From a virus (taxonomy: Duplodnaviria > Caudoviricetes): a DNA stretch of 64,000 bases. Under the pieces are notes generated by a model, which saw only the letters and a program-made list of their open reading frames with translations, had not been told where the DNA came from and searched no databases. The stretch's first letter is position 1, and every line of letters begins with the position of its first letter. The position numbers were made by a program, and so were the translations under genes. This document shows, piece after piece, positions 32,405 through 50,578 of the stretch. The DNA lies in IMG/VR virus record IMGVR_UViG_3300028886_000028, positions 224,001-288,000 of that record, one strand, 5' to 3'.

Positions 32405-32463
32405 AGGAAACATACAGCAAGTTTAATTTATGGATTGCAACTCTTTAAAAACAAATGTTTCCT
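32405..32463 (+). ncRNA. ACAGCAA cassette 1 (Cys GCA anticodon-loop cargo)
   Basis: aggaaacat/atgtttcct 9 bp; acagcaa; gga-ttgcaac-tct. Confidence 0.75.
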
Positions 32464-32469
32464 AAACAT

Positions 32470-32541
32470 GGCCGGTTAGTGTAGCGGTCAGCACACGAGA
32501 TTTTCATTCTCGGGACGGGGTTTCGACTACCCCACCGGCTA
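32470..32541 (+). tRNA. tRNA-Glu(TTC)
   Basis: Cloverleaf; cgaga-ttttcat-tctcg. Confidence 0.9.
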
Positions 32542-32566
32542 CTTAATAGAATTTTAAAATGATGTT

Positions 32567-32818
32567 ATGGCTAAACTTGTAGCAATTAACTGGGAAAGTT
32601 TGAAAAGTGGAGCGATGCTTCGAATGAAAGATTTTCCATCAATAAAACTTTTGAAACTTAGTAACTCTAAAGCCTGTTATTTTCCATATGGCGACGATTC
32701 AATTATAGTTGATATAAAAGAATATGAATCTGAAATTAATGGCTTTTATTATTATTTTCAGACAAAAAAAGACGACTGGCATCCATTAACAATAAGACTT
32801 TGGGAAGAATATGATTGA
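32567..32818 (+). CDS. hypothetical protein
   Basis: 83 aa ORF. Confidence 0.55.
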   Translation: MAKLVAINWESLKSGAMLRMKDFPSIKLLKLSNSKACYFPYGDDSIIVDIKEYESEINGFYYYFQTKKDDWHPLTIRLWEEYD

Positions 32819-33275
32819 AAATAGTATTAGCCTTGCGTATAAAAGGATGAAAGAAAAAAAGTGGGATAAAATATATGTGCTGATTGATATACATAACACT
32901 ATATTTAGACCTTCTTATCGTAACGGAGAAACTTATCAATGGTTTAATGGTGCTAAAGAAGCACTACAGTTTTTAACCAAAAATAGTAAGATTTGTTTGA
33001 TATTGTGGACTTCATCACATAAATCAAATATTGATGAATACATAAAAGTGTTTGAAGAAAATGGAATTCATTTTGATTATGTTAATGAAAATCCGGAAGT
33101 AACAAATGACGATATTGGAAATTTCGATAAAAAATTATATTTCAATATAGGAATTGACGATAAATTTGGCTTTGATGCAGAAAATGGAGACTGGATGTCA
33201 TTGTTGAAAAAAGTGACAACATTATTTCCATTAAAAAATGATGAGAAATGGGCAGAAGATGAACTGAAAATATAA
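32811..33275 (+). CDS. HAD-like protein
   Basis: LIDIHNTI, ILWTS, VNENPE, IDDK. Confidence 0.65.
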   Translation: MIENSISLAYKRMKEKKWDKIYVLIDIHNTIFRPSYRNGETYQWFNGAKEALQFLTKNSKICLILWTSSHKSNIDEYIKVFEENGIHFDYVNENPEVTNDDIGNFDKKLYFNIGIDDKFGFDAENGDWMSLLKKVTTLFPLKNDEKWAEDELKI

Positions 33276-33283
33276 AATAACAC

Positions 33284-33351
33284 GGGAATTTACAGCAATT
33301 TTTGTTAAAACATATGAATATCTTACATAGAACGTTGAACACTTAGTTCCC
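33284..33351 (+). ncRNA. ACAGCAA cassette 2
   Basis: gggaatt/agttccc; tacagcaa; inner gttaaaaca...aacgttgaac shared with cassette 8. Confidence 0.75.
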
Positions 33352-33373
33352 TAATTTTAAAAGTACAGTAAAT

Positions 33374-33628
33374 ATGTTAAGAGGAAGTGATATTGAAATA
33401 ATATGCAAAAACAAAATGGAATACTTATTTATGGCTTCATTAATAAGTTCCGATAATATAAGAACTATAAAAGACGCAGAGGAATCATTGAAATTTATAA
33501 GTGAAGTAGAAGAAGCATTAAAAACGGCTCAAATTTCAGAAGATAAGAAAAAAGAATTTGAAAAATATATAGAAAAAGGAAAAAATATATTACAAACAGA
33601 TGTAGAAAGATTTAAAAACGAAAAATAA
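33374..33628 (+). CDS. hypothetical protein
   Basis: 84 aa ORF. Confidence 0.55.
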   Translation: MLRGSDIEIICKNKMEYLFMASLISSDNIRTIKDAEESLKFISEVEEALKTAQISEDKKKEFEKYIEKGKNILQTDVERFKNEK

Positions 33629-33630
33629 AT

Positions 33631-33711
33631 TGTGTGGTTCCAGAGTGGTCAAATGGGCTTGACTGTAAATCAAGTGCTTCGGCTTCGGAGGTCCGAATCC
33701 TCCCCACACAA
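33631..33711 (+). tRNA. tRNA-Tyr(GTA)
   Basis: cttga-ctgtaaa-tcaag; long variable arm. Confidence 0.9.
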
Positions 33712-33837
33712 CAAATAATAAATTAACATTTTTTTACAAGTTTTATTTTGCTTTTAAAATGTTTTTTTGTATATTTGCATAAATAACTCTAAATTTGAAA
33801 TTTCTCAACCTTGGCAAAGGCTAAAAACAATAAAGCA

Positions 33838-33973
33838 AGGAATCTAACAGCAAAAACTATATTTAGCAATTGGGGCCGTTGACGGTAGTTCGATTCTGCC
33901 TGCCCTGACGAACAATATGCGCTAAACATCAGGGTATAGTTCAGTGGTAGAATAACGTATTTAAATGATTCCT
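33838..33973 (+). ncRNA. ACAGCAA cassette 3 with circularly permuted tRNA-Pro-like domain
   Basis: aggaatc/gattcct; 3' half (T-arm, tgccctga) precedes 5' half (tcagggta, D-arm). Confidence 0.85.
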
Positions 33974-33981
33974 AACATTAA

Positions 33982-34055
33982 CGGGGTGTAGCTCAGTAGG
34001 TTAGAGTGCTAGTTTTGGGAACTAGTTGTCGCAGGTTCGAGTCCTGTCACCCCGA
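33982..34055 (+). tRNA. tRNA-Pro(TGG)
   Basis: ctagt-tttggga-actag. Confidence 0.92.
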
Positions 34056-34345
34056 CAATAACCGCTGAGGCGCAAGAGCAATCGCAAGTGAGACGATAGT
34101 AAATAATGGACGGCGTGTAAACAACACATAAAAAGCCTCACCCATTTGAGGGTAGAATCAATCCGATAATCACTCTACGCAGTCAGGTTATAAAAATAAT
34201 ATCAAATAATCGTTCCACGTAAGTCCAATAAACTGTGGGTTCGTGAAAATCGAAAGAATGTACCAGGTTATCTTCCTGGAGAGGTATGGGTGGAGGTAAG
34301 GTCTCTAGCAAAAGCCCAAACGTGATAGTTGATATTATATCGTCA

Positions 34346-34458
34346 AGGAGTCTAACAGCATATGTATAATTACGACGGTTAGCTTAGTGGTTAAAGCCTT
34401 GGATTTTACTAAGAGACGTTGGTTCGAATCCAGCACCACCGGGTTTAAAATGACTCCT
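34346..34458 (+). ncRNA. ACAGCA cassette 4 with degenerate tRNA-Lys(TTT)-like body
   Basis: aggagtc/gactcct; D- and T-arms intact, acceptor mismatched, 6-nt anticodon loop. Confidence 0.8.
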
Positions 34459-34495
34459 ATTTTTTGAAAAACATTAATTTAAAAAAATAAAGATT

Positions 34496-34831
34496 ATGCT
34501 ACATGTTTATGAAAAAGTAACAAAGGATAAAATAGACTTTCCTGCGTATACATTATGCTTTCTTGGCATAATAATGAATAAACTTGAGTTTTATGGTTTA
34601 ATAGACGGTAAAAAAGGTAAGATTGATACAGAATCTCCTACTACACTCGTTATACCTGTTGTAAGCAGAAAGTTTGAATATTGCTATGATGGCATAGAAC
34701 TTATTAAAAAAACATTGAAACGTAGAGGCTTTGTGTGTGATATGGCTCATTACAAAACCATCGAAATTGACGAAAAAGATGGAACAAAAAGTAAAGGCTA
34801 TTCATACGAATATAAAATCTCAAAAGCCTAG
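34496..34831 (+). CDS. hypothetical protein
   Basis: 111 aa ORF. Confidence 0.6.
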   Translation: MLHVYEKVTKDKIDFPAYTLCFLGIIMNKLEFYGLIDGKKGKIDTESPTTLVIPVVSRKFEYCYDGIELIKKTLKRRGFVCDMAHYKTIEIDEKDGTKSKGYSYEYKISKA

Positions 34832-34843
34832 TATATAATACAC

Positions 34844-34907
34844 GGGAGCGTACAGCAAAGTTTATGCATATTCACAGTAATTTTTGGGTAGTTAAACAGG
34901 CGTTCCC
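34844..34907 (+). ncRNA. ACAGCAA cassette 5 (minimal)
   Basis: gggagcg/cgttccc; tacagcaa. Confidence 0.7.
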
Positions 34908-34959
34908 TTTTTTTGAATTTATTGTTTTAAATTATAATAATTGTAATTAAAAAAAAAGA

Positions 34960-35982
34960 ATGAAGAAGTTTTTGTTTATGTTTGCCCTAATGTTGGGCGT
35001 AGTAAGTGCAAATGCGCAGATTGCTACACAGAATAGTGCTGCGCTTGATAATGTTAGTGTTGGAGTTACAGCTGGCGTATCTACTCCGCTTGATTTTAAC
35101 AGTGTTTTCCCTCTAAATACAAACTTGGGAATTAAGTTGCAGAAGGATTTTACAACTGCATTTGGCGTACAAATAGAGGGATTGGCGTTTCTTAATGATA
35201 ACCATTTTTCTGATATTAGTACCGCAGTAAAAGCAACAAATGTTGGCGCAAATGGCGTATTTAACCTTTCTAACATTTTTGGCGGATATAATGGAACGCC
35301 TAGGGTTTTTGAGGTTAGCACTGTAACTGGTATTGGGTGGTTGCATAGTTGGGACACAAAAAGTAATTTCCTAACTTCAAAGACAGGTATTGATTTTGCA
35401 TTCAATCTTGGTAATGAAAAGGCGCATTCAATTGTTATTACTCCAGCCGTCTATTGGAATCTTAATAAATTCGGTCATGTTCATTTTGACAAGCGTGGTT
35501 CACAGTTAGCAATTAATGTGTCATATGTTTATCACTTCAAGACTACTAATGGTACTCGTCATTTTAAGACGTATGATGTTGGAGCCATGATAGGTGAGAT
35601 TTCACGCTTGAATGCATCACTTGCTGAATGTGAAAAACGTGAGCCAAAGGTTATTGAAAGAGTAGTAGAAGTACCAGCAATCAATGGAGCAGCAGTTAAA
35701 ACCGGCAATGAAATGTGGGTAGTACCATTTGCTGTAGGAGAATCTACTCTTAGCAGTATCGCACAGGAAGTACTTAATCAGATTGGTAATGATGCAATCG
35801 TAGATGTTACTGCAACAGCATCACCGGATGGCCCAACTTATTTCAATAAGAGGCTTTCAGAGAGACGTGCAGCAGCAGTTGCTGATTATCTTACCAAACG
35901 TGGCGTTCGTGTGAATAGTTGGGCAGGAGAAGGCGTAAATCCTGAGACTGGACGTTCAGCAATCGTTAAGACTATTCAGTAG
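34960..35982 (+). CDS. OmpA-family outer membrane protein
   Basis: Signal peptide, beta-barrel-like N-terminus, C-terminal ASPDG..NKRLSERRAAAVADYL. Confidence 0.85.
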   Translation: MKKFLFMFALMLGVVSANAQIATQNSAALDNVSVGVTAGVSTPLDFNSVFPLNTNLGIKLQKDFTTAFGVQIEGLAFLNDNHFSDISTAVKATNVGANGVFNLSNIFGGYNGTPRVFEVSTVTGIGWLHSWDTKSNFLTSKTGIDFAFNLGNEKAHSIVITPAVYWNLNKFGHVHFDKRGSQLAINVSYVYHFKTTNGTRHFKTYDVGAMIGEISRLNASLAECEKREPKVIERVVEVPAINGAAVKTGNEMWVVPFAVGESTLSSIAQEVLNQIGNDAIVDVTATASPDGPTYFNKRLSERRAAAVADYLTKRGVRVNSWAGEGVNPETGRSAIVKTIQ

Positions 35983-36253
35983 TTATATATAGATATATTT
36001 GGCAGTGTTGATGAAGTACACTGCAAGCCTTATGAATCACGTTTTGGGTAGTAGTTTTTTGTGTTCTTTCATTATCAGAGGTTTTACTTTACCAAGCGTG
36101 GTAAAGGAGTGATTCAAATAAGGCGGTTGCCGATAAACGTAAACGGCTCGTGGCGTGTACCAAACGAGAGAATTGCAAAATTTTCAAGAAGCACGTTTAT
36201 CCTGTTTGCTGCTGCAAATAAAAGGTACTGGGCAAACCTAAATTGCCCAATTC

Positions 36254-36328
36254 GCAGGCGTCGCCTAGTTGATTATGGCACTTGGCTTCCAACCAGGAAT
36301 AACGTGGGTTTGAATCCCATCGCCTGCT
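36254..36328 (+). tRNA. tRNA-Gly(TCC)
   Basis: cttgg-cttccaa-ccagg; U73. Confidence 0.88.
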
Positions 36329-36397
36329 CATAATAAATGTCAGTTCTATTTACATTTTTCGCTCTTTTACTAATATTTATATACAAATAGATGTATT

Positions 36398-37168
36398 ATG
36401 GATATTAGTAAATTAAATGAAATTTTAGAGAAAAGTAAAAGTATGAGTGATGTTGCCAGATGTATTTTTGGCAAAGAAAATTATACTAATCGTGAAAAAT
36501 GCAAAAAAATCATTGAAGACTATGGTATAGACTGGAAAAAATGGTTAGCAGAAAAAAATATTAAGCCAAAAAGATATTGTCTTTATTGTGGTAAAGAAAT
36601 AACAGAAGGTGATAGTAGAAAAAAATTTTGTAACTCTTCTTGTGCAGCCAGCTATAACAATAAAGGTAAAAAACATTCTGATAATACAAAAAAGAAAATT
36701 TCAGAAGTATTACAAAAAAAAAGTGCTTCTTTTGATGGGACTATAAAACCAATAAAGGCAAGGTATAGAAGAAGTAAAGAAAATACCAATTGTTTGTATT
36801 GCGGAAAAGAGCTGAATGGCTATAGATTTTGTGATAATATATGTCGTTCAAAGTATAAAGCAAAACAATACATAGAACGTTGGAAAAAAGGAGAGGAAAC
36901 AGGATTAAGTGGTAAATATGGAATGGCAAGGGCAGTAAGAAATTATATTTTTGAAAGCAAAGAAAATAAATGTGAGTGCTGTGGCAATAACTATATAAAT
37001 CCATATACAGGTTTATCAGTTCTTCAAATACATCACAAGGACGGAGATTGCACGAACAACAAGGAAGAAAATCTTCAATTGCTTTGTCCAACTTGTCATG
37101 CAATGACAGAAAATTTCGGAAGCAGAAATAAAAATGCTACTAGAATAGATAATAGGAAAAGATATTAA
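36398..37168 (+). CDS. free-standing HNH endonuclease with Zn-ribbon repeats
   Basis: CLYCGK..FC repeats; LQIHHKDGD..NN..NLQLLCPTCH. Confidence 0.9.
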   Translation: MDISKLNEILEKSKSMSDVARCIFGKENYTNREKCKKIIEDYGIDWKKWLAEKNIKPKRYCLYCGKEITEGDSRKKFCNSSCAASYNNKGKKHSDNTKKKISEVLQKKSASFDGTIKPIKARYRRSKENTNCLYCGKELNGYRFCDNICRSKYKAKQYIERWKKGEETGLSGKYGMARAVRNYIFESKENKCECCGNNYINPYTGLSVLQIHHKDGDCTNNKEENLQLLCPTCHAMTENFGSRNKNATRIDNRKRY

Positions 37169-37209
37169 ATATCGGGTAGACTCCCTGTTAGTCACAGGAC
37201 CGGCTCTAT

Positions 37210-37282
37210 GCGGATATAGCTCAATTGGTAGAGCGTCTGCTTGCCATGCAGAAGGTTGGGGAATCGTGCTCCCTTATCCGCT
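37210..37282 (+). tRNA. tRNA-Gly(GCC)
   Basis: tctgc-ttgccat-gcaga; atypical T-loop atcgtgc. Confidence 0.85.
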
Positions 37283-37316
37283 CAATGAATTTAATAACTA
37301 ACTAAAAAAATCAAGA

Positions 37317-37640
37317 ATGGTAACAACAGCATTATTTACAGAAGCATTTTGGTACTATGCACCGATTTTGGCTTCTTTAACAGTAACAATTGCAGGAGCA
37401 ATTAATGGAAAATTTAACATCACAAATGGTATGTGGCCTCAGATTGTAGCATGGATTGTAGGCGTGGTGCTAACAGTAGGTGGATGGTTTATCGGTCTTG
37501 TACCACTAGGCGAACCTACTTGGCTTGCTATCGTTTGTTTGTGTGGTGTTGTAGGCCTTAGCAGTAATGGTATTTATGATATTCCATTTATCAAGAATTT
37601 GATAGATAAGATGCTGCCAGACGAAAAGTCTAAGGCTTAA
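37317..37640 (+). CDS. holin-like membrane protein
   Basis: Three TM segments, GLSSNGIYD motif, charged C-terminus. Confidence 0.55.
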   Translation: MVTTALFTEAFWYYAPILASLTVTIAGAINGKFNITNGMWPQIVAWIVGVVLTVGGWFIGLVPLGEPTWLAIVCLCGVVGLSSNGIYDIPFIKNLIDKMLPDEKSKA

Positions 37641-37855
37641 ATTTATACGCCGAACAAAGGGCTACAGTAGGCAAACGTCAAACCAAAGCCCTTGAACCTC
37701 GTAAACGTCTCAACCGCATTATGCAAAGAGAGAGGTAACAGACCATTGGGCAATTCCATAGGAGTGTTGTTAGGACGTTTATTGCACCATCAATATGGTG
37801 CAATTTTTTTGTTTGTATATTTCTTTTTTTTAACTTTTTTTTGTATATTTGTATT

Positions 37856-38074
37856 ATGAAAAAATATGCAGAAAAATGTTGGCGATGTGGAAAGCCATTA
37901 ATATGTCACGGAAGCTTTATGATTAGTGACTGGGAAGGTATAGAAATGGATGAAAATGATGACGCTGTTATAACAGATTATTATTGTCCATATTGTGGTA
38001 TGGAATATTCTATTACAGATACGCCTAAAAATCAAATGAACAATTATCAATATTTTAAAAAAGAGCAAACATGA
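37856..38074 (+). CDS. small Zn-ribbon protein
   Basis: CWRC...CPYC. Confidence 0.6.
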   Translation: MKKYAEKCWRCGKPLICHGSFMISDWEGIEMDENDDAVITDYYCPYCGMEYSITDTPKNQMNNYQYFKKEQT

Positions 38075-38457
38075 AATTTGGAGAAAGTTATGAGATTTTA
38101 ACAAAGGGAGGTTTTGTTGCCAGAAAGATTTGGGAAGGAGTTTTTATTTGGCTTAAACCTTCAGCAATAGTTAAATCAGAATGGTGCAGAGACCCAATTT
38201 TGAAAATGATTGCTGATGCAAATGGTGGAGAAGTGAAAGCTGAAGCTGTTTTGTGCAAGCATAACATTTATAAAAATGAAGTTATGACTGGTTGGATTCC
38301 GCAACAAGATGATTTGGCAGCAGATGATTGGCATGAATGTAAACCAGAAATAGTAAATGGCATATCTGGTAAACTTATTGTTATTGATAGCGCTAATAAA
38401 AATGATGGCTATGTTGGTGATTTGTTTGATGGGGCAGATGTAATTAAAAAACCATAA
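38071..38457 (+). CDS. DUF2829 / Tad2-like anti-defence protein
   Basis: MKFGE..L..G..VARKIW ... GWIPQQDDLAADDW. Confidence 0.7.
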   Translation: MKFGESYEILTKGGFVARKIWEGVFIWLKPSAIVKSEWCRDPILKMIADANGGEVKAEAVLCKHNIYKNEVMTGWIPQQDDLAADDWHECKPEIVNGISGKLIVIDSANKNDGYVGDLFDGADVIKKP

Positions 38458-38614
38458 ATTGTATTTTCATGTATAAAGTGCTATTCATTTATGACATTTA
38501 TGATGTAGATGAAGAACCAGATATTGAACCATATTTTGGAATAATGCCTCAAAAAAGGTCAATATAATTGCGTTTTTATTTACTCCACAAATTAATTTAT
38601 TATATTATATAAAA

Positions 38615-38700: not shown

Positions 38701-38728
38701 CTAAAAATAATATAGTAATTTTTTTTAT

Positions 38729-39280
38729 ATGTCTGAATTTAAAACAATTGATGAAGATGGGGTTTTATTGAGAAGGTGTTGGGCAATGCCTAATAAAAAC
38801 ACTTTCTCAATAAAGCCGTTTAAAGAACTTATTGAAAAATACAAAGCTGAATTACCTGAAGGGGCTATCATATTAGACCCATTTGCTAATTCAAATAAGC
38901 ATGGCACGATAACAAATGATATAGACCCACAATATGATACAGATTATCATTTAGACGCAAAAGATTTTCTTAAGTTGTTTAGCGACAGCTCAATAGATAT
39001 GATATTGTATGACCCACCATTTTCGCCTACACAAGTTGTTACTTGTTATAAAAAACTAGAAAAAACCGTTGATTGGGAAAGTACATCTGCTTCTTTTTGG
39101 TCTAAACAAAAAGAGGAAATAGGAAGAATTTTAAAACCTGGAGGTATTTGCATAACGTTTGGATGGAATTCTGGTGGAGTAGGTAAAAAATATGGATGCG
39201 AAATAAAGGAAATATTACTTGTAGCACACGGAGGTCAGCATAACGATACTATTGCAGTTGTTGATGAAAAAATAAAATAG
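38729..39280 (+). CDS. small adenine DNA methyltransferase-like protein
   Basis: ILDPFA, YDPPF, RILKPGG. Confidence 0.75.
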   Translation: MSEFKTIDEDGVLLRRCWAMPNKNTFSIKPFKELIEKYKAELPEGAIILDPFANSNKHGTITNDIDPQYDTDYHLDAKDFLKLFSDSSIDMILYDPPFSPTQVVTCYKKLEKTVDWESTSASFWSKQKEEIGRILKPGGICITFGWNSGGVGKKYGCEIKEILLVAHGGQHNDTIAVVDEKIK

Positions 39281-39283
39281 AAT

Positions 39284-40060
39284 ATGGCAATAGAAGTAAA
39301 CAAAATATATAATGAAGATTGTTTTGATACTATGAAACGTATGGAGGACAGGTCTATCAATGTAATATTGACAAGTCCTCCATATAACATGACGAAACGA
39401 AAAGGAGGCTATGCTGACAGTGGAAGGTATGATGTCTATAAAGATTGGAAAACTGAAAAAGAATATTTAGATTTTACTAAAAACTTGTTTAATGAATTTA
39501 ATAGAATCATATCTGATAATGGAGTAGTATTATATAATTTCGGCTACAGTATTGAAAATCCTGCATTACCTTATAAATTAGTAACTGAAATAGTTGAAAA
39601 TACTAACTGGCGTTTAGTTGACACTATATGTTGGAAAAAAAGTAGTGGTTTGCCTTTTCCTGCTAATAAATGTAGATTAAGCAGAACTTGGGAATATGTA
39701 TTTGTTTTTGCGAAAAATGGTATGATAAATGATTTTTTCATTGATAAAGGAATAGCATCAATTAGTGAAAAAACAAATCAAATATATTATAATGTATTTT
39801 ATAACTATATTGAAGCTAGAAACAATGATGAAAAAACAAATAAATTGAATCAAGCAACGTTTAGTAGTGAATTAGTTGTTAAACTTCTTGACTTATATTC
39901 AAGTGATGGCTTTATAATATACGACCCATTTATGGGGACAGGGACAACAGCAATAGGTTGTTTGAAGTCAAAAAAACAATTATATTATATTGGTAGTGAA
40001 ATATCAGAAGAACAGGTAAAATATTCTATAGAAAGGATAAACAAAACTCATTTTGTCTAA
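39284..40060 (+). CDS. N4-C/N6-A DNA methyltransferase (beta class)
   Basis: TSPPY before DPFMGTGTT. Confidence 0.9.
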   Translation: MAIEVNKIYNEDCFDTMKRMEDRSINVILTSPPYNMTKRKGGYADSGRYDVYKDWKTEKEYLDFTKNLFNEFNRIISDNGVVLYNFGYSIENPALPYKLVTEIVENTNWRLVDTICWKKSSGLPFPANKCRLSRTWEYVFVFAKNGMINDFFIDKGIASISEKTNQIYYNVFYNYIEARNNDEKTNKLNQATFSSELVVKLLDLYSSDGFIIYDPFMGTGTTAIGCLKSKKQLYYIGSEISEEQVKYSIERINKTHFV

Positions 40061-40081
40061 TATTTATTAAGAAAAAACATT

Positions 40082-40675: not shown

Positions 40676-40848
40676 AAGGAACGTACAGCAAGTTTGTTTT
40701 AAATGTAATTTATTTATTTATTCAGACTGAAGCGAGAATAGAGAAGCACAAAATAATAATTGCGAGGCACTATTCTTATTTTTTACCGCAAATAATGAAG
40801 AATTTCATAATTTGCAAAGTCATTCCCGGACTTAAAAGGGCGTTCCTT
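40676..40848 (+). ncRNA. ACAGCAA cassette 6 (long, cargo unclear)
   Basis: aaggaacg/cgttcctt 8 bp; tacagcaa. Confidence 0.7.
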
Positions 40849-41680: not shown

Positions 41681-42519
41681 GGTGAGGTGGCAGAGTGGTC
41701 GATTGCACCGGTCTTGCGCCTAATTCGAGTGCTATGGCGAAAAATCCCATAGTAGAATCTCCCTAAAACGGTGGAAGTCCTTTGAGACTCCTATGAGAAT
41801 CCTTGTTGATTCAATAATGAGGTGACAATAATAACAAACACTAACCAATAATGTGTAAGGATAATACCGTGCTAAATTGAGAATAATACTAAAATTTATC
41901 ATATATGAGATAACAAATAGAGGAAACTAAATATGGTACTTGCGCAAAATTTTAGTTAGTATTAAAAATGAGTTGTATTCTTATATGGTAGACAGCCATT
42001 AAGTTGAGACGCTTAGTATAAATATGAGCATCAGGCGAGAGTGGGTTCAAACACCACCAACTCATTTATAAATTGAAAAGCATACAGAATATCCAAAAGT
42101 ATGTAAAAAGACGATGGTGCAACATAGTCAATTTTTAATTTATTTCTCATAAATGTGTAGAGAGTATATAGGAGATACCTAAGTTGAAATTAATTTGAGG
42201 GAAAGTACTCAGCGTAGTAATACGTAATACATGAAAATTGTATTTTAAAGGAGGTTTGCCAATTGGGATAGCCCTATCAAATTACTTGCAAGAATTTCAA
42301 TATGGTAAATATGTATTCCAGACTACAACGAACATAGGAGAAATAGCGAGGAGATAGTTCAAGACTAGAGCAGCAGTTCTTGTAAACTGAAGACAGTGGG
42401 TGTAATTCCCACACTTTTCGCCACGACTTTCTTCTAAATTTGGTTATGGCAACATAAAGTAGCAAGGAAAACCGGCGGACGTGACGAGCGTTCCGGGGGT
42501 TCGAATCCCTCCCTCACCG
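41681..42519 (+). tRNA. tRNA-Ser(TGA) split by an intron (exons 41681-41715, 42467-42519)
   Basis: Joining exons gives ccggt-cttgaaa-accgg, ggtgagg/cctcacc acceptor, long variable arm, G73. Confidence 0.9.
41716..42466 (+). mobile_element. group I intron (751 nt, no endonuclease ORF)
   Basis: Exon ends in U with P1 cttg/cgag; P3 atctcc/ggagat; Q-like aataccgtgctaa; R-like gtagagagtata and S-like aatatgtattcc with compensatory P7; ends in G. Confidence 0.85.
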
Positions 42520-43549: not shown

Positions 43550-43632
43550 GGATGCGTGTAAGGACTCCTCTGGGGAGTGACCGTGTGATTGACATCAGGT
43601 AACAAACATAGGTTCGAATCCTATTGCATCCA
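43550..43632 (+). ncRNA. tRNA-like element (acceptor + T-arm, aberrant D/anticodon arms)
   Basis: ggatgcg/tgcatcc; atagg-ttcgaat-cctat. Confidence 0.55.
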
Positions 43633-44127: not shown

Positions 44128-44249
44128 AGGAAACTAACAGCAAGGTTAAAAATGGCTTGTAACCCGTGGGTCACAGGTTCGAATCCTGTCTTAGGCTTTA
44201 AAAGTCTGGGTAGCTCAGTTGGCAGAGCAACGTTAATAAAATGTTTCCT
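44128..44249 (+). ncRNA. ACAGCAA cassette 7 with circularly permuted tRNA-Thr(TGT)
   Basis: aggaaac/gtttcct; gg-cttgtaa-cccgt, T-arm, acceptor closed by ttaaa, D-arm, acg. Confidence 0.9.
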
Positions 44250-44255
44250 AAAAAT

Positions 44256-44329: not shown

Positions 44330-44344
44330 CACAATACAATTTTT

Positions 44345-44416
44345 GGGCTGTATAGTGTAAAGGCTAACACGAGACTTTTGCAAAGTCTAATTGCGGTTCG
44401 AGTCCGATACGGTCCA
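44345..44416 (+). tRNA. tRNA-Ala(TGC), 8-bp acceptor variant
   Basis: agact-tttgcaa-agtct; G3:U; gggctgta/tacggtcc. Confidence 0.75.
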
Positions 44417-44423
44417 CTAGACA

Positions 44424-44500
44424 AGGGAACTAACAGCAAGTTATTATTTATGTTAAAACATCAGACTGCAAATTTGAAAACGTTGAACAAATAGTTCCCT
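44424..44500 (+). ncRNA. ACAGCAA cassette 8 with isolated Cys(GCA) anticodon arm
   Basis: agggaacta/tagttccct; tcaga-ctgcaaa-tttga. Confidence 0.82.
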
Positions 44501-44516
44501 AATATTCATATTAAAC

Positions 44517-44924
44517 GGGCCTAAATTGGTATAGATTGGCAGTAGTTTGGTAGAAATCAAGCAGTGGGCATACACTAGAAATAGCAAAAAAAATATAAAC
44601 GGCGAGAATGTAGATTCTCCTGCTTATGCTTACGCAATGGCTGCGTAAGGCATGAGTCGAGAGACTAGGCTCTTAGGAACAGAACATCCTAGTAATTTTT
44701 CTTAGCGTTGTACGTTAAGATGGTGGAACTGATGACTTCTAGTCATCCCCTAGTTTTCCTCGTTTTCACAAAATGAGGTGGCGGTGAGTTAACTTTCCAA
44801 TGTTTTCCTCGTTTTCTCAAAATGAGGTGGTCTCAAAGGCGGTGTCTTCGGACACTTTGGGTAAGCTTGTATAAATTTCTATGGAACACTGAACAAGACG
44901 AGGGTTCAACTCCCTCTAGGTCCA
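44517..44924 (+). ncRNA. ssrA: tmRNA
   Basis: gggccta/taggtcc with G3:U, T-arm; tag ORF 44601-44648 GENVDSPAYAYAMAA*. Confidence 0.92.
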
Positions 44925-45100
44925 CTAAATACTAAAAAAAAACTTATGAAACATTTTAGCGAAGGAAATCAAGAAGAAGAGTATGATTCTATGAAAGAAT
45001 ATGAAACTAACATACCTTCTCATTTTAAAGACGATTAAAAAAGTAACTTAAAATTTCTTTTTTACAATTTTTTTATGTATATTTGCAAAAAATATTGGTT

Positions 45101-45352
45101 ATGGGAAAAATTTTAGATGCAGAATTTAGAAAAGAACTTTATAAAAATCTTGTAGAGGCCGGGTATGAAAAGACAGAGGCTCAAAAGATTGTTGGTAAAA
45201 AGTATTATGGAGAGTTGCATGAAGAAGTAAAGAAGGAAGTTGATGTGTTTTTAAATGCATTAGTAAAAGAGGATTTTAGTGTTGTTTTTGATTGCGATTC
45301 AGTGACAAAGAAAGTAGAAGAACTTAAAAAGTTAAAAGAATTACTTAGTTAA
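45101..45352 (+). CDS. hypothetical protein
   Basis: ORF after early promoter. Confidence 0.6.
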   Translation: MGKILDAEFRKELYKNLVEAGYEKTEAQKIVGKKYYGELHEEVKKEVDVFLNALVKEDFSVVFDCDSVTKKVEELKKLKELLS

Positions 45353-45358
45353 TAATAT

Positions 45359-45431
45359 TGTGGGGTAGAGCAGTTGGTAGCTTGTCAGACTCATAATCTG
45401 GAGGTCGTGGGTTCGAGTCCCACCCCCGCTA
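45359..45431 (+). tRNA. tRNA-Met(CAT), initiator-like
   Basis: 1:72 mismatch, gagcagttggtagct D-arm; lacks the three G:C anticodon-stem pairs. Confidence 0.8.
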
Positions 45432-45444
45432 CTTTATAAATACA

Positions 45445-45573
45445 AGGAAGTTGACAGCAAACGATAAGAAATTTTCCCAAGCCGGAGGTCGTTGGTTCGA
45501 ATCCAACTAGGAATTGTGTTTATCCTATAGCTCAGATGGTTTAGAGCGCCAGCTATTTCATTTAATGCTTCCT
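45445..45573 (+). ncRNA. ACAGCAA cassette 9 with circularly permuted tRNA-like domain (CCC loop)
   Basis: aggaagt/gcttcct; ttcccaa-gccgg, T-arm, tagga/tccta, D-arm, ccagc. Confidence 0.85.
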
Positions 45574-45578
45574 AAAAT

Positions 45579-45655
45579 AGCCTCAGGGGATGCTAGGCGT
45601 GTCCGTCACTCTGTCACAGTGTTCAATCAGGTGGGTTCGAATCCCATTGGGGCTG
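45579..45655 (+). tRNA. tRNA-Asp(GTC), atypical D-arm
   Basis: cact-ctgtcac-agtg; G73. Confidence 0.75.
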
Positions 45656-45682
45656 CGTAGTATAAAACGTTTCCTAAAATAT

Positions 45683-45756
45683 GGTGTACGTGGTTGAGTG
45701 GTTTAGGCGCAAGATTGTGGTTCTTGTCTACGCAGGTTCGAATCCTGTCGTACACC
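45683..45756 (+). tRNA. tRNA-His(GTG)
   Basis: G-1:C73; caaga-ttgtggt-tcttg. Confidence 0.9.
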
Positions 45757-45944
45757 CTAGAATAATTTAATATTTTTAAATAAAATTAGTTATGAAAAGT
45801 TTTTGGTAGATTATCAATCAGTTTTGGTAGCTGAATCGTGTTCGTGGTACTCCTAGAGTTAATTTATTATCATCGAGTGAAAATAAGGGCGATAATAGTC
45901 CTTTTACAACATTAGAAAAATATAATAAATTAATATTAGGAATT

Positions 45945-46259
45945 ATGGAAAAATTACAATTTACAGACAAAGCAACCACAAAAGAACAGTATTTAAAGTT
46001 CAAGGAGTATATTAAGCAAAATTGTCACGGTCACGCTGCTTATGTAGCATACTACATTTTCAAGCATCGTATTGAAGGTGAAAAACGTGATGAATATCTT
46101 GAAGACGAGGTTAGACATCGTTGTTGGAAAGGCCTTTATCATGGTAGAATTCTACTCAGTGGTGGAGACATGACAGAAAACTATGCAATACCACTCTTTA
46201 AGAATAGGGTAATTAGAAAGTATAACGAATTTGCTGACCCAGATGGAAAAGAAAAATAA
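45945..46259 (+). CDS. hypothetical protein
   Basis: 104 aa ORF. Confidence 0.6.
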   Translation: MEKLQFTDKATTKEQYLKFKEYIKQNCHGHAAYVAYYIFKHRIEGEKRDEYLEDEVRHRCWKGLYHGRILLSGGDMTENYAIPLFKNRVIRKYNEFADPDGKEK

Positions 46260-46539
46260 GTTATACGTATTAATTGACAAATCCCTTGATGCTGTATACG
46301 GTTGTGTTCAAGGTGGTCACGCAGTGGCGCAATGGTTACTTGAACATGATTATGGTTGGGAAAACGAGTACTTGATTTATTTGAGTGCTGATGTCTATAA
46401 GTGGAAAAACAAGTTATCTGTTCTTGGTGTCGGTTATACTGAATTTAAAGAACCAGACCTTGACAATAAAACCACATCTTTAGCTGTATTAGGGCACGAT
46501 AAGTTATTTAAGAAATTAAAATTAATCAGTGCTAATTAA
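46243..46539 (+). CDS. peptidyl-tRNA hydrolase type 2-like protein
   Basis: KLYVLID..L...VQGGHA ... EPDLDNKTTSLAV. Confidence 0.65.
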   Translation: MEKKNKLYVLIDKSLDAVYGCVQGGHAVAQWLLEHDYGWENEYLIYLSADVYKWKNKLSVLGVGYTEFKEPDLDNKTTSLAVLGHDKLFKKLKLISAN

Positions 46540-46568
46540 GCGTTACGGCTGTAGAAATACAGCCTATT

Positions 46569-46645
46569 GGCCCTATGGCAGAGTGGTCGATTGCGGTCGC
46601 TTCTAAACCGATTTATCATCGTGGGTTCGAATCCTACTAGGGTCA
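46569..46645 (+). tRNA. amber suppressor tRNA (CTA)
   Basis: gtcgc-ttctaaa-ccgat; ggcccta/tagggtc; canonical T-arm. Confidence 0.75.
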
Positions 46646-46829
46646 CTACGGCTTGGTGTATCCATTGAGATACTGAAATAGGTTAGACAAGCACAAGTCA
46701 CGTAAGAAATGACAGGCAGGCAGTAATGCTGTGCGAGGATTAGTCCCTTGCTCTAATCTCTTGATGGTAATAGAGACCTTTTTAAGTTAGAGGTTAAACT
46801 TATATTTTTTTAAAAAAGTATTAATAATT

Positions 46830-47078
46830 ATGGTAGTACAAGATATTAAGCCTTTAGTGAAAGGCATCGCTCAATTACAATATGTATTAGCCGGAGGTAT
46901 AGCAGTATATAAAATAATTGCTGTAGATGGCACGGAATATCAACTGGAAATAGATGTGAGCAATAAAAATGATGTTGGAGCAAGTGCTTCTTTTAATACA
47001 ACTGAAAAGGCTTTACTTCTAATGAGGTGGATAAGGAAAGCTAATGAAAATGATACTCTTATCAAAATAAAGGGCTAG
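46830..47078 (+). CDS. hypothetical protein
   Basis: 82 aa ORF. Confidence 0.6.
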   Translation: MVVQDIKPLVKGIAQLQYVLAGGIAVYKIIAVDGTEYQLEIDVSNKNDVGASASFNTTEKALLLMRWIRKANENDTLIKIKG

Positions 47079-47152
47079 CAGTAAAAGGTTCATCCTAAAG
47101 CTCTATTCGTAGGAATGCTGAAGGACTGAGTGTTCGAATCACTCCTAGTCCA
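47072..47152 (+). ncRNA. tRNA-like mini-RNA with Ala-type acceptor (G3:U) and no D-arm
   Basis: gggctag/ctagtcc-a; gagtg-ttcgaat-cactc. Confidence 0.65.
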
Positions 47153-47170
47153 CAAATTTAAATAAAAGTT

Positions 47171-47359
47171 ATGGCTATAATAGTTACAAAACATGGAGAT
47201 AGAATGCTTCATGGAAAATGCACAAAATGTGGCTGCGAATTTTTGTATCAATTTACTGATATAGTATATGATTATGATAGAATTAATGCATATGATTCAG
47301 AATTAAGGTGCAAATATGTACGTTGCCCAGAATGTAATGCTGTTATAGGATTAGATTAA
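47171..47359 (+). CDS. small Zn-ribbon protein
   Basis: CTKCGCEF...CPEC. Confidence 0.6.
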   Translation: MAIIVTKHGDRMLHGKCTKCGCEFLYQFTDIVYDYDRINAYDSELRCKYVRCPECNAVIGLD

Positions 47360-47365
47360 ACAAAT

Positions 47366-47698
47366 ATGGGAGAAAAGTACACTTATAGTGGATTTGAAAA
47401 CAGAGAAACTTGCGAACATTTAAGAGCAGGAGAAACATGCAAAGTAACTGGTATAGGAAATAGTATGACACCAGTTCTTCAATCTCACCAACCTGTTATT
47501 TGCGAACCGGTTACTGTTGAAACTGAATTGAAGAAAAAAGACATTGTTCTTTGTAAAGTGAAAAGATATTATTATTTACATTTTATTCATGCAATAAAGA
47601 ATAATGGAGAACAGTTTCTAATAGGCAACAATCATGGTCGCATGAATGGTTGGATAAGCAGAAATCAGGTATATGGTAAAGTTATAGAGATACTTTAA
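47366..47698 (+). CDS. S24/S26 peptidase-like protein
   Basis: GNSMTP, DIVLCKV, LH, IGNNHG. Confidence 0.55.
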   Translation: MGEKYTYSGFENRETCEHLRAGETCKVTGIGNSMTPVLQSHQPVICEPVTVETELKKKDIVLCKVKRYYYLHFIHAIKNNGEQFLIGNNHGRMNGWISRNQVYGKVIEIL

Positions 47699-48430
47699 AA
47701 ATCTCTTTTATACACCCTAGTAGTTTAAATCGTGAAAACTAGATGTATTCTAATGGTGAGTCGAATCATCCTGGGGCACTTTAGTCCTATTATTCCCTGA
47801 GAGTTGCCTAGCGTCACTCAAAGTAGTAGGTTTTGTGAATGGGTAACTGTATGAAATGGCTGTTTGTATCTTATCGTGTAGATGCATGGCACGTCATACA
47901 AACACAATGGAGATAAATCATGCAACTTATCATCCTTGTTCACACAAAGTACCCATTCAATTTTTTTAAAAGTTTGTGATAATTATGGATGGGTTTGATT
48001 ACAAAAATGGAGAACTAGTCTGTAAAAGATGCGGAAGCAGAAATGTATCAGTAAGAGCTGGTATGATGACAGACAGAGCGATATGTAATAGTTGTGGTAA
48101 TGAAGATTACATTTAACAAAAATTAATATTTTTAATTTCTTTTTTATAATTATTTTTTGTATATTTGCGTTGTAATAAGAAAAACATATGGCTTCGCTAT
48201 CAAGAAGTCAAAGGCATAACAGCCTATCGCATTTGTCCATAGCGCTTGTAACTTTGCGAACGGCGGGCTTTTCTCTAGTACAGCCTAAAAACTTGAGGGT
48301 TAGTTGTTTATCCACAAAGCAAGCACGGGTTCGAGGAAATTGGTGGTGCGTCTATAAATCCTCCGAATAACCCACGATAAGGGTGTCGTTTTGTCTGTTG
48401 TACGGCACTAGTAAAACAATAGATAATTAT

Positions 48431-48503
48431 GCTCCGTTAGCTCAGTTGGAAGAGCACTAGATTTGTAATCCTGAGGTCGTGGGTTCAAGTCCCGCACGGA
48501 GCT
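48431..48503 (+). tRNA. tRNA-Thr(TGT), weak anticodon stem
   Basis: ctaga-tttgtaa-tcctg (two mismatches). Confidence 0.75.
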
Positions 48504-48575
48504 CAGAATAAGGGGGAGAGCCTGTAGTTACGGCAGAACAGCATTCGGCTTCTACGCCAACCTCCCCAAATTTTT

Positions 48576-48649
48576 GCTCCATTAGCTCAGCTGTATAGAG
48601 CGTCATCCTCCTAAGATGAATGTCACAGGTTAGAGTCCTGTATGGAGCA
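48576..48649 (+). tRNA. tRNA-Arg(CCT)
   Basis: tcatc-ctcctaa-gatga. Confidence 0.88.
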
Positions 48650-48703
48650 CGGAAATCCCTTCTCAGTTGGGGGATAATAATATCACTGAGTGGCGGCTAA
48701 TTT

Positions 48704-49000
48704 ATGACAAAGAAATATTGGAAAGATTGGCAAAATAGAATTGGAGAAACCAAAAACATATACAAGTTTTGGAATTATTCAGATGGCAAAAAAATGAAAA
48801 GGTTTGGAGGTATATTAAACAACCTTGCAGGCGATAAATTATCTAAAGCAACATTTAATCATACAACAGATACTGTTGATTTGGTTATTGAAAGGTGGCA
48901 TCAAACGTTTTCAAAATCAATTCACATTCAGAATGAATATATAACATTGAATCGTGAAGATATTGCTTGTATAGAATTTAATAAAGAATATAATACATAG
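48704..49000 (+). CDS. hypothetical protein
   Basis: 98 aa ORF. Confidence 0.6.
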   Translation: MTKKYWKDWQNRIGETKNIYKFWNYSDGKKMKRFGGILNNLAGDKLSKATFNHTTDTVDLVIERWHQTFSKSIHIQNEYITLNREDIACIEFNKEYNT

Positions 49001-49117
49001 AAGGACATACTGGGGTAAAATCTCAGAGAAGTTACCGTAGGCAACGAATAATTGCATCCTACATCAAGGCGTTGTTACAGTTGTACGGGATAGTGGAATG
49101 TAAGTATTATATATAAA

Positions 49118-49204
49118 GGAGGGATGGGTGAGTGGCTTAAACCAGCACATTGCTAACGTGCCGGCCCTTAATTGGGCCCGGGGGTTCGAATCCCTCTCCC
49201 TCCG
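49118..49204 (+). tRNA. tRNA-Ser(GCT)
   Basis: gcaca-ttgctaa-cgtgc; long variable arm. Confidence 0.9.
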
Positions 49205-49225
49205 CTTAACTAAATTTAGTTAAAT

Positions 49226-49430
49226 GCTGTGCATCAGTGGTCCAGAGTGGTGCGCGGCTGCTACGCAAGGAAATATTCGAATAATGGTAATGCGTAGAAA
49301 ATCCCGGGCCGATGGATAGGAACGGAGAGCACCTGGTAGAGTGCGAAAGTGCGCGAAGGCGTTTACGGGTAGCTTAATGGTGTCGGTTAAGGCTTACGAT
49401 AGCCTTGTTTCATATTAGGTGATGTACAGC
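49226..49430 (+). ncRNA. unknown GC-rich structured RNA
   Basis: 11-bp closing helix gctgtgcatca/tgatgtacagc; internal hairpins. Confidence 0.55.
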
Positions 49431-49523
49431 CCTTTTATGGAAAAGTTATGAGGGTATATTAACTTAATGTTACGTTATGCCCTCATTTTTTTTATTTTAG
49501 TCTAACTAAAAATTTTATATCAT

Positions 49524-49769
49524 ATGGCGCAAAAGAAATTTTCTGAAATGGATATGATTATGATGGAACTACAGAAAATCGGAAACGATGAATTTATGTT
49601 GGGGTTCCAATATCCAGGGAACACTTTGGAAGAAGTTTTAACTGAAGCAATAAAAAAATTGCAGGATTATCTGGAAAACAATAAAGAAAATAAAGACAAA
49701 GTTTCTCCTTATGGCTACAGAATAAATCTTGAGCTTTTTAAAAAGGGAGAGCCAAAAAATATTTTCTAG
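49524..49769 (+). CDS. hypothetical protein
   Basis: 81 aa ORF. Confidence 0.55.
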   Translation: MAQKKFSEMDMIMMELQKIGNDEFMLGFQYPGNTLEEVLTEAIKKLQDYLENNKENKDKVSPYGYRINLELFKKGEPKNIF

Positions 49770-49818
49770 GTGTATTTTCCTATCATAATTTGATATTTAT
49801 TAAAAATATTCAAATAAC

Positions 49819-50319
49819 ATGATAGGTTCATTACATACAATGAGTTATCTTAAACCTTGCAATGTTTTTTTAAAATTTTTTGCAAGGTTTAAAAGGACTC
49901 AAACAGTTAATATAAAAGAGCAGTATGAAAAATACAATATAAGGGTGTTTGACTTTCATATATACTTTGTTGGAATAAATGGCAAAGCCATTTTTAAATA
50001 CAGTGGTATAAAATACGAAATATCTTCTATGTACAAAATATTCAATTATTTAGAATACGTTGGCAATTCTTATGTTAGAATTGTATTAGAAGATAATGGT
50101 GAGAAAATCACAGAAAACGATAGGCTTTTACTTGAAAAACGTTTTATTGATTATTGTAAGATAATAGAGACTATATATCCCAGAATAAAATTTTTCGGAG
50201 GGTATAGAGAATATGATTCAAACATGTTATATAGATTTAAAAATGACGCTCCTAATGATTTAATCTTTTATAAAAGAGTTGATAAATTAAATAAATTCGC
50301 CGGTGGGGGAGTGGTTTAA
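49819..50319 (+). CDS. PI-PLC X-domain-like protein (degenerate)
   Basis: IGSLHTMSY..TQTVNIKEQYE..IRVFDF resembles the PLC-X N-terminus. Confidence 0.45.
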   Translation: MIGSLHTMSYLKPCNVFLKFFARFKRTQTVNIKEQYEKYNIRVFDFHIYFVGINGKAIFKYSGIKYEISSMYKIFNYLEYVGNSYVRIVLEDNGEKITENDRLLLEKRFIDYCKIIETIYPRIKFFGGYREYDSNMLYRFKNDAPNDLIFYKRVDKLNKFAGGGVV

Positions 50320-50384
50320 CCCAGCAGTCTCCAAAACTGCCGTAGCTTAGGCTACCGCATGTTCGAATCGTGCCCGGCGAGCCA
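50297..50384 (+). tRNA. tRNA with CCA (Trp) anticodon and long variable arm
   Basis: gcagt-ctccaaa-actgc; gtagc/gctac arm; GCCA end. Confidence 0.85.
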
Positions 50385-50389
50385 TTTAC

Positions 50390-50466
50390 GGCGTGATAGC
50401 TCAGTTGGTCAGAGCAACAGACTCATATTCTGTGGGCCGTAAGTTCGAATCTTACTCACGCTACCA
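50390..50466 (+). tRNA. tRNA-Met/Ile2(CAT)
   Basis: acaga-ctcatat-tctgt; ACCA end. Confidence 0.88.
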
Positions 50467-50578
50467 AGGGAACTTACAGCAAGTATTCATCGTGAAGGAA
50501 TGGTCTACTTGAAAGTCTTAAGAGCTTTTGTGCGTAAGCACTTGTGGGTTCGAATCCCACCGAAAATAAAAGTTCCCT
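50467..50578 (+). ncRNA. ACAGCAA cassette 10 with acceptor-less tRNA-Leu(TAA) body
   Basis: agggaactt/aagttccct; aaagt-cttaaga-gcttt, variable arm gtgc/gcac, T-arm. Confidence 0.85.

Follow-up and report, generated by a model that had tools for sequence, protein, structure and literature searches.

ACAGCAA-handled RNA cassettes in the tRNA array of a gut phage, probable Y-RNA-like partners of a Ro60-shaped protein

Ro60 and the Y RNAs make up an RNA-surveillance particle that has been studied for a long time and is poorly understood, and the only Y RNAs known so far from bacteria and phages are the CGAA-type YrlA and YrlB. The subject of the present analysis is a family of RNA cassettes in a 64,000-nucleotide stretch of DNA (the window), which comprises bases 224001-288000 of the IMG/VR record IMGVR_UViG_3300028886_000028 (Duplodnaviria; Caudoviricetes), a 401,138-bp virus genome that is complete by CheckV. 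An earlier reading of the window from its letters alone, called here the sequence-only reading, had noticed ten copies of a terminal stem with an ACAGCA motif (the handle) enclosing a variable cargo and lying among tRNA genes, and had described them as a modular RNA toolkit. This is fair as a description, though it supplies no mechanism. Most likely the cassettes, together with a Ro60-shaped protein encoded in the same window, are a variant of the Ro60/Y-RNA kind with the toolkit as the RNA half of the particle, and the sequence-only reading was broadly right and incomplete. It had missed the tRNA look-alike cargos, the two such cargos that are called as tRNAs by ARAGORN, and the gene for the Ro60-shaped protein.

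Four described systems are relevant here. Bacterial Ro60/YrlA particles tether exoribonucleases such as PNPase, and the YrlA 5' motif GNCGAAN0-1G is the presumed Ro60 contact (PMC4201824). In the Thermus phage phiLo the protein phiRo60 binds the stem-bulge-stem RNAs Yrl1 and Yrl2, which are encoded just upstream, and host PNPase is recruited, in what is proposed to be a hijacking of this enzyme (PMC12135203; PDB 9KOP, 9L5Y). In phage Bas63 the Ro60-like protein gp130 acts against the Ppl defence and is encoded directly upstream of a tRNA array; the authors speculated that some of the neighbouring 'tRNAs' are Y RNAs, which were neither identified nor defined there (PMC11482910). Finally, the Class I RNAs of the dictyostelids are 42-65 nt long, use a DUSE promoter situated some 60 nt upstream, are ligands of the RRM protein Rnp1A and have been described as unique to Dictyostelia (PMC7919456). 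Their motif is largely unpaired and the curated sequences consist of a stem plus CCTTACAGCAA (PMC7919456 supplement). For the ACAGCAA handle no published description was found, and a literature search with the motif string returned no relevant paper.

The cassettes, their handle and their cargos

All ten cassettes were found at the starts given by the sequence-only reading and the paired ends of each were mapped (Table 1). An eleventh is present elsewhere in the genome. The terminal stem comprises 7-9 contiguous pairs in all 11 copies and the ACAGCAA core comes directly after it or past no more than two unpaired nucleotides. The 5' and 3' strands quoted earlier were correct and the covariation claimed for them is real: stem positions 1-3 are near-constant, with A/G-G-G opposite C-C-T/C, and positions 4-7 show compensatory changes (A-T, G-C, T-A, C-G). 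Five G.T wobbles and no A.C are present in the stems, therefore the helix forms only in RNA of the + strand. Invariance had been claimed for ACAGCA and this hexamer is indeed strictly invariant, but the full ACAGCAA heptamer is not, the seventh letter being T in the copy at 34346. The core site reads ACAGCAAG in six of the 11 copies and ACAGCA(A/T)N in the remainder. The strand facing the core is A-rich, often UUAAAAU, while the sequence 5' of every cassette is CA (CAC in two) and that 3' of most is TAA or AA.

When the whole genome was scanned for GGRR followed 2-6 nt later by ACAGCA, together with a complementary arm of 6 bp that ends in CC, the 11 true copies were recovered, all on the + strand, compared with 0.4 matches per shuffled genome. 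The ACAGCAA word occurs 23 times in the window where 10.7 ± 3.4 are expected, and between 32 and 51 kb the stem is present at nine of its ten + strand occurrences. Scanning for cores with one mismatch gave no further convincing cassette. The core had been taken to be unpaired, and this is borne out by a shuffle test on 63 non-redundant cassettes in which pairing between core and cargo was no commoner than with shuffled cargo (36% vs 39%). Because its complementarity to the cargo does not exceed that of shuffled sequence, the ACAGCAA core is best taken as single-stranded. A second helix between core and cargo, suspected from a change of CAAG:CTTG to CAAA:TTTG in the cassette at 44128 and its orthologues, was ruled out by the same test.

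The interleaving with tRNAs that had been described was also found, seven of the ten window copies lying within 16 nt of a tRNA or transfer-messenger RNA (tmRNA) on at least one side. Cassettes 7 and 10 had been said to begin at the base after an encoded tRNA CCA, so that tRNA processing could release them. The placement is literally true, but the argument drawn from it is weaker than claimed. Given that only three of the 23 tRNA genes in the window encode CCA (Val, Trp and the second Met) and that CA precedes every cassette, the apparent CCA may consist of the discriminator-adjacent C of the tRNA and the CA flank of the cassette. At most tRNA 3' ends in the window CA or CT comes next, followed by an A/T-rich spacer. 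Release by tRNA processing is still plausible as the copies adjoin tRNAs, though its basis in the CCA is weakened.

The contrast of constant handle and variable cargo holds, the cargo extending for about 34 to 148 nt from the core to the 3' arm. The cargos of the 11 copies can be sorted into four permuted tRNA look-alikes (cassettes 33838, 44128 and 45445 and the genome copy at 189040), two normal-order tRNA look-alikes and five hairpins, two of the latter carrying a 7-nt YUGCAAM loop on a stem of 2-4 bp. In the permuted cargos the T arm and 3' acceptor strand are upstream of the 5' acceptor strand and D arm. When tandem duplicates of these were submitted to ARAGORN, a cloverleaf was returned only across the junction, which confirms the circular permutation. 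In short BLAST comparisons with the tRNAs of the phage itself, the T-arm matches of 44128 and 45445 lay upstream of those to the D arm. The comparisons revealed no source among the phage tRNAs for the tRNA-like cargos, the matches being limited to generic T-arm and D-arm blocks.

The two normal-order cargos coincide with ARAGORN calls at 34373-34442 and 50486-50568. The first has an 'anticodon' loop of 6 nt and two acceptor mismatches, and the second has three acceptor mismatches and scores 37 bits with the tRNA model. Neither shows the 7-nt anticodon loop, paired acceptor and free 3' end of a bona fide tRNA. Judged by their predicted folds, the two calls are cargo and not tRNA genes because of the 6-nt loop in one and the mismatched acceptor stem in the other and because both are locked inside a handle stem. 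For annotation this means that two 'tRNA genes' of the window would be cargo, and similar miscalls are likely across many phage genomes. An Rfam scan, which had been suggested as a check on novelty, gave no family above threshold on the cassettes except for the generic tRNA model on the two tRNA-like cargos, and no ribozyme family was returned at E up to 1.

Conservation was examined by a DNA search of three related IMG/VR rumen phage records, which located the syntenic array, and orthologues were then grouped and aligned. The two larger relatives have about nine cassettes apiece, and related phages vary in how many cassettes they carry and in what these contain. Compensation in the handle stem is seen among orthologues at pair 8 (32405 group, three orthologues) and pairs 6-7 (45445 group). 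The inner arms behave in the same manner. The T arm covaries, with ACAGG/CCTGT vs GCCGG/CCGGT and the further pairs GTTGG/CCAAC, GTAGG/CCTAC, AGTGG/CCACT and GTGGG/CCCAC; in the orthologues of cassette 7 both the T arm and the acceptor hairpin covary and in those of cassette 9 the T arm does so too. The closed acceptor hairpin is replaced wholly in sequence among orthologues and changes in length from about 4 to 8 bp; that of cassette 9 differs in length and sequence with its pairing kept. The 6-nt loop of the 34346 group is retained in four orthologues, and in three orthologues of cassette 6 the 3' 40 nt and the central hairpin are conserved. An orthologue of cassette 8 is 95% identical, with two of the four differences falling within the 7-nt loop. 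This loop is CUGCAAA in cassette 8 and CUUGAAA in the orthologue, by which an 'anticodon-like' triplet changes from GCA to UGA.

The Ro60-shaped protein and its association with the handle

The window encodes, upstream of the array, a 540-aa protein that matches PHROG 850 (E 1e-50) and DUF7788 (E 1e-20, 74 bits). Its match to DUF2828 is weak (13.9 bits vs a cut-off of 29), as is that to VWA_2. TROVE (PF05731) matched nothing in the 401-kb genome and nothing in five further records that have cassettes. Since the DUF2828 Pfam score alone is sub-threshold, the family was set via DUF7788, PHROG 850, the domains of the homologues and the fold; the 1,727 database relatives of the protein carry DUF2828 and DUF7788. 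The MIDAS motif DxSxS (D330 T331 S332 S334) is invariant in 31 homologues. An AlphaFold (AF2) model built from these 31 homologues reached a predicted local distance difference test score of 82 and a predicted template modelling score of 0.80, and the best twelve matches to this model found by Foldseek in the PDB were all Ro60/TROVE. With VIA-align, Ro60 chains gave Z 14.6-18.3 over about 420 residues compared with Z of at most 11 for proteins that have only a vWA domain, the best structural match being phiRo60 (9KOP, Z 18.3). The model thus has the ring of HEAT-like repeats plus a vWA domain with MIDAS that characterises Ro60. By tblastn, homologues were found in 680 named phages, including Felix O1 and mycobacteriophages with genes labelled 'Ro-like RNA binding protein'. 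DUF2828 appeared in the literature searched in plant and tardigrade papers only.

The co-occurrence of handle and protein was approached from both sides. On the RNA side, a scan of IMG/VR for the 5' half of the handle gave mostly chance matches, and a filter for the 3' arm was added which left contigs with multiple cassettes. Four of five records chosen by their cassettes alone encode a homologue of the protein, vs none of five chance-match controls. On the protein side, handles with a 7-bp stem were sought in 78 viral loci, each with a homologue (24-79% identity) at its centre. Within 500 nt of the gene 42 matches were on the strand of the gene and four on the opposite strand, with about 1.7 in shuffles. 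Among the 27 non-redundant copies near the gene the stems are unrelated, but the ACAGCA(A/G) core is common to them and their 3' strand is A-rich. The DUF2828 gene and a handle on the same strand are 30-250 nt apart in many phages, in some of them without a nearby tRNA array. Loose scanners are noisy in shuffled sequence (252 matches with a 6-bp stem and 63 with a 7-bp stem), hence only the enrichment in position and strand near the gene was used as evidence.

Phage Felix O1 (NC_005282.1) provides an example. Its homologue is 26% identical to the 540-aa protein and, as with Bas63 gp130, this Ro60-shaped gene is directly upstream of a phage tRNA array. Four unannotated ACAGCAA cassettes are present among the annotated tRNAs that follow the 'RNA-binding protein' gene, and the last of them has a permuted tRNA-like cargo. 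Thus the handle RNAs have gone unannotated even in textbook phages.

Comparison with described systems and weighing of explanations

The cassettes resemble the YrlA Y RNAs in having paired ends, a conserved motif in the 5' strand and a distal module that is a permuted tRNA mimic; the genome also encodes a ring-plus-vWA Ro60-shaped protein, and phage examples of the YrlA type are known. The permuted module in full (T arm, closed acceptor stem-loop, D arm) is found in 33838, 44128, 45445 and genome 189040 and not in the other seven copies. The YrlA model (RF02553) has a gathering threshold of 69 bits, which no cassette reached, the best scores being 34.3 bits (44145-44255) and 27.6 bits (45454-45574); on the other nine copies there was no match at E up to 1. 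Though sub-threshold, with a score half of what the family requires, these two matches are full-length and are the sole non-tRNA Rfam matches on the cassettes. The differences from YrlA are considerable. The motif GNCGAAN0-1G is not found in the cassettes, an ACAGCA-type core, ACAGCAA(G), taking its place. There are 11 paralogues, including normal-order tRNA mimics and plain hairpins, whereas YrlA occurs as one or two. The RNA genes are within a tRNA array and not beside the protein gene, and no TROVE Ro60/Rsr gene adjoins them, the Ro60-shaped protein 8.5 kb upstream being of the DUF2828/DUF7788 kind.

The phiLo system likewise combines a Ro60-shaped phage protein with phage RNAs, although binding is for our locus only proposed, and its RNAs, which were picked by CGAA, differ from the cassettes in that an ACAGCAA handle, tRNA-like cargo and a multicopy family are not reported for them (PMC12135203). 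With the Class I RNAs the cassettes have in common a short stem joining the ends, 2-3 nt, ACAGCAA and a variable region, and the motif is largely unpaired in both. The stem and ACAGCAA layout is present in the cassettes, but only the last seven of the 11 motif letters are common to both. With the Class I model RF01414 no match was obtained over 30000-53000 at an E cut-off of 1, and a cut-off of 10 for the 59-nt cassette by itself gave none either; Class I RNAs are eukaryotic while the cassettes belong to a phage of a bacterial host. From the sequences the likeness would be a lead and not membership, and it may be due to convergence.

On this evidence we consider it probable, though well short of certain, that the cassettes are Y-RNA-like small RNAs whose handle is bound by the phage Ro60-like protein and whose cargo is an adapter or decoy. 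The bound element would be the terminal helix of 7-9 bp with the single-stranded ACAGCAA(G) and the A-rich strand facing it, in the place where YrlA carries its Ro60-binding motif, and we infer that the protein encoded at 22260-23882 is what binds it. The cassette RNAs would be transcribed together with the tRNA array and could be excised by the host enzymes responsible for trimming the adjacent tRNAs, with RNase P acting on the 3' side and RNase Z or exonucleases on the 5' side. The functional part would be the variable cargo, which mimics a tRNA in six copies and is a hairpin in the rest. It may recruit tRNA-recognising enzymes or nucleases to the protein ring as an adapter, or else divert them as a decoy. 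The tRNA mimics would fit either an adapter toward tRNA-recognising enzymes or a decoy toward tRNA-cleaving defences. By analogy, the role during infection is likely to be RNA quality control or repair, or counter-defence.

Several observations weigh against this proposal. The handle contains neither of the known Ro60 contact motifs, GNCGAA of bacteria and phages or GGUCCGA of animals. The 540-aa protein is below the Pfam thresholds of both TROVE and DUF2828. Its gene does not flank any cassette in this genome, the distances spanning 8.5-28 kb. One of the five cassette-bearing records is without a homologue, this record being a 26%-complete fragment, and co-occurrence could arise from common residence in tRNA/RNA-metabolism islands and not from physical partnership.

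Some of these points would suit an explanation that we regard as rather unlikely, in which the handle is a real RNA structure that is read by another factor, such as host Rsr/Ro60, an RNase or a chaperone, or is a clamp for processing or stability, with an indirect link to DUF2828. The separation of gene and RNAs and the fragment that lacks the protein would be expected, a TROVE protein is encoded by Bacteroides, a likely relative of the host, and the abutment of cassettes on tRNAs, with CA flanking all and TAA most of them, resembles a processing context. However, the proximity of the handle to the DUF2828 gene, on the same strand, recurs in many phages with identities down to 24%, and a generic stability clamp has no need of an invariant single-stranded heptamer.

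Permuted tRNA genes are known in the red alga Cyanidioschyzon merolae and in some archaea, and in the red alga the acceptor end is opened by RNase P/RNase Z. The tRNA-shaped cassettes could be imagined as precursors of working tRNAs in a similar manner, with cleavage of the handle, circularisation of the permuted ones by RtcB and opening by RNase P/RNase Z. In four copies the 3' half comes first and is joined to the 5' half via the acceptor end, which would agree with this, as would the RtcB encoded by the phage and the lack in the array of several tRNA species, e.g. Cys and Gln. We nevertheless think this very improbable. Joining the ends yields no credible anticodon stem-loop: on the tandem duplicates ARAGORN finds acceptor, D and T arms with anticodon arms that are poor or arbitrary, and it needs 'introns' of 24-99 nt and long extra arms to do so. 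The helix that matches an anticodon stem is continuous with the handle. A hairpin whose length differs among orthologues (about 4 to 8 bp) closes the acceptor end, and there is no evident splicing-endonuclease motif. Five of the cargos have no tRNA likeness, the normal-order ones show a 6-nt loop or mismatches in the acceptor stem, and RtcB is present in only one of the five other cassette-bearing records. It is harder still to credit that the inverted repeats act as DNA, either as the ends of miniature mobile elements or as recombination sites that shuffle cassettes, even though there are many copies of inverted repeats around a variable 'cargo' and related phages differ in cassette number and content. 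The wobble pairs confine pairing to one strand, all 11 copies are oriented with transcription, the repeats differ by compensation and are not copies of one end sequence, no target-site duplications are seen, and the inner tRNA-like arms covary as well.

If the Ro60/Y-RNA reading is true, the known Y-like RNAs are joined by another class that is far larger and has a separate handle and a separate branch of the protein. Such a class would explain the Ro60-shaped gene beside phage tRNA arrays, provide a testable RNA component for the anti-defence phenotype of Bas63 gp130 and be a natural case of one scaffold presenting many cargos. The window has the system at its most elaborate, with eleven paralogues, four cargo types (both tRNA-mimic orientations among them), RNA genes apart from the protein gene and two miscalled tRNAs. 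The same ACAGCAA handle occurs in the dictyostelid Class I RNAs, for which no relatives are known, and this makes their origin and mechanism testable. A wider form of the reading is tentative and we hold it to be possible but doubtful, namely that ACAGCAA-handle RNAs are the cognate ligands of the whole DUF2828/DUF7788 Ro60-like branch, forming a ribonucleoprotein system of tailed phages with the Class I RNAs as its eukaryotic form and the 11 paralogues as programmable adapters or decoys. Such a system may range over Felix O1-like, Listeria, Campylobacter and Vibrio phages and rumen megaphages, possibly beyond, and its tRNA-shaped and anticodon-arm-like cargos may let one ring engage many tRNA-directed host enzymes and defence nucleases.

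Surroundings of the cassettes

The positions of the cassettes and of the other features discussed are given in Table 1.

Table 1. Cassettes, the Ro60-like gene and further features; positions refer to the window unless the genome or the extracted Felix O1 locus is named (ORF, open reading frame).
Feature	Position	Strand	Description	Setting
Cassette 1	32405-32463	+	59 nt; 9-bp stem, ACAGCAAG; short hairpin cargo with conserved YUGCAAM loop	6 nt from its end to tRNA-Glu
Cassette 2	33284-33351	+	68 nt; 7-bp stem GGGAATT/TAGTTCCC with one G.U; ACAGCAAT; hairpin cargo	8 nt past the stop of an ORF
Cassette 3	33838-33973	+	136 nt; circularly permuted tRNA look-alike (T arm, closed acceptor hairpin, D arm)	8 nt from its end to tRNA-Pro
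Cassette 4	34346-34458	+	113 nt; core ACAGCAT; normal-order tRNA look-alike; ARAGORN tRNA-??? (34373-34442)	
Cassette 5	34844-34907	+	64 nt; 8-bp stem with two G.U; ACAGCAAA; hairpin cargo	between two ORFs
Cassette 6	40676-40848	+	173 nt, the longest; multi-hairpin cargo without tRNA features	13 nt past tRNA-Arg(tct), 4 nt ahead of tRNA-Arg(acg)
Cassette 7	44128-44249	+	122 nt; permuted tRNA look-alike, YrlA architecture	start directly abuts tRNA-Val ...CCA; 6 nt from its end to tRNA-Ile
Cassette 8	44424-44500	+	77 nt; 9-bp stem; two small hairpins, one with 7-nt CUGCAAA loop	6 nt past tRNA-Ala; 16 nt ahead of the tmRNA gene
Cassette 9	45445-45573	+	129 nt; permuted tRNA look-alike	12 nt past tRNA-Met; 5 nt ahead of tRNA-Asp
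Cassette 10	50467-50578	+	112 nt; normal-order class-II-like tRNA look-alike; ARAGORN tRNA-Leu(taa) (50486-50568)	directly abuts tRNA-Met ...CCA; final gene of the array
Cassette 11	genome 189040-189180	+	permuted tRNA look-alike cargo	outside the window, 35 kb upstream
Ro60-shaped protein gene	22260-23882	+	540 aa; DUF2828/DUF7788 family; PHROG 850 'RNA-binding protein'	8.5 kb from the nearest cassette
Felix O1 cassettes	6756-6820, 6924-6982, 7377-7446, 7464-7589 (of extracted locus)		stem AGACC/GGTCT in all	
IF3	20094-20621	+		neighbour of the Ro60-like gene
Sigma-70-like factor	20630-21589	+		neighbour of the Ro60-like gene
Tyrosyl-tRNA synthetase	24213-25490	+		neighbour of the Ro60-like gene
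Tad2-like ORF	38071-38457	+	Tad2-like (Thoeris anti-defence 2) domain, E 1.5e-10	within the tRNA array
Two DNA methylase-like ORFs	38729-40060			after the Tad2-like ORF
Weak tRNA-model match	42348-42420	+	30 bits; unusual T loop, encoded CCA	
Weak tRNA-model match	43550-43632	+	25.5 bits; good acceptor stem, oversized D region	
tmRNA	44517-44925	+	Rfam 54.8 bits, above threshold; tag peptide GENVDSPAYAYAMAA	16 nt past cassette 8
tRNA with anticodon CTA	46569-46646	+	ARAGORN label tRNA-Pyl; amber-suppressor type	
RtcB cluster	genome 315180-319265		RtcB RNA ligase (at 316.5 kb), cytidylyltransferase-like, microbial PARG and NADAR genes	

The window has a G+C content of 29-37% and nearly all of its genes are carried by the + strand. 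The sequencing runs that contain the stretch are bovine and sheep gut metagenomes, among them six metatranscriptomes (contigs). The tag of the phage tmRNA starts GEN... and a promoter word of the type TAnnTTTG precedes cassette 1. Both are typical of Bacteroidota, thus the host is probably a rumen member of the Bacteroidota.

ARAGORN makes 25 tRNA calls and one tmRNA call between 32.4 and 50.6 kb. Two further matches to the tRNA model at 42-44 kb are weak, are not called by ARAGORN and have no ACAGCAA handle. The tRNA with anticodon CTA hints that TAG may be an amino-acid codon in part of the phage genes; such a reassignment of TAG has been reported for other large gut phages. The array also contains the Tad2-like ORF, with the two methylase-like ORFs behind it. 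The immediate neighbours of the Ro60-like gene serve translation and transcription (IF3, the sigma-70-like factor and tyrosyl-tRNA synthetase), and beyond the tyrosyl-tRNA synthetase gene that follows it are genes for NAD synthase, SSB and a TelA-like protein. Outside the window, the cluster that includes RtcB suggests a capacity for RNA repair and for reversal of ADP-ribosylation.

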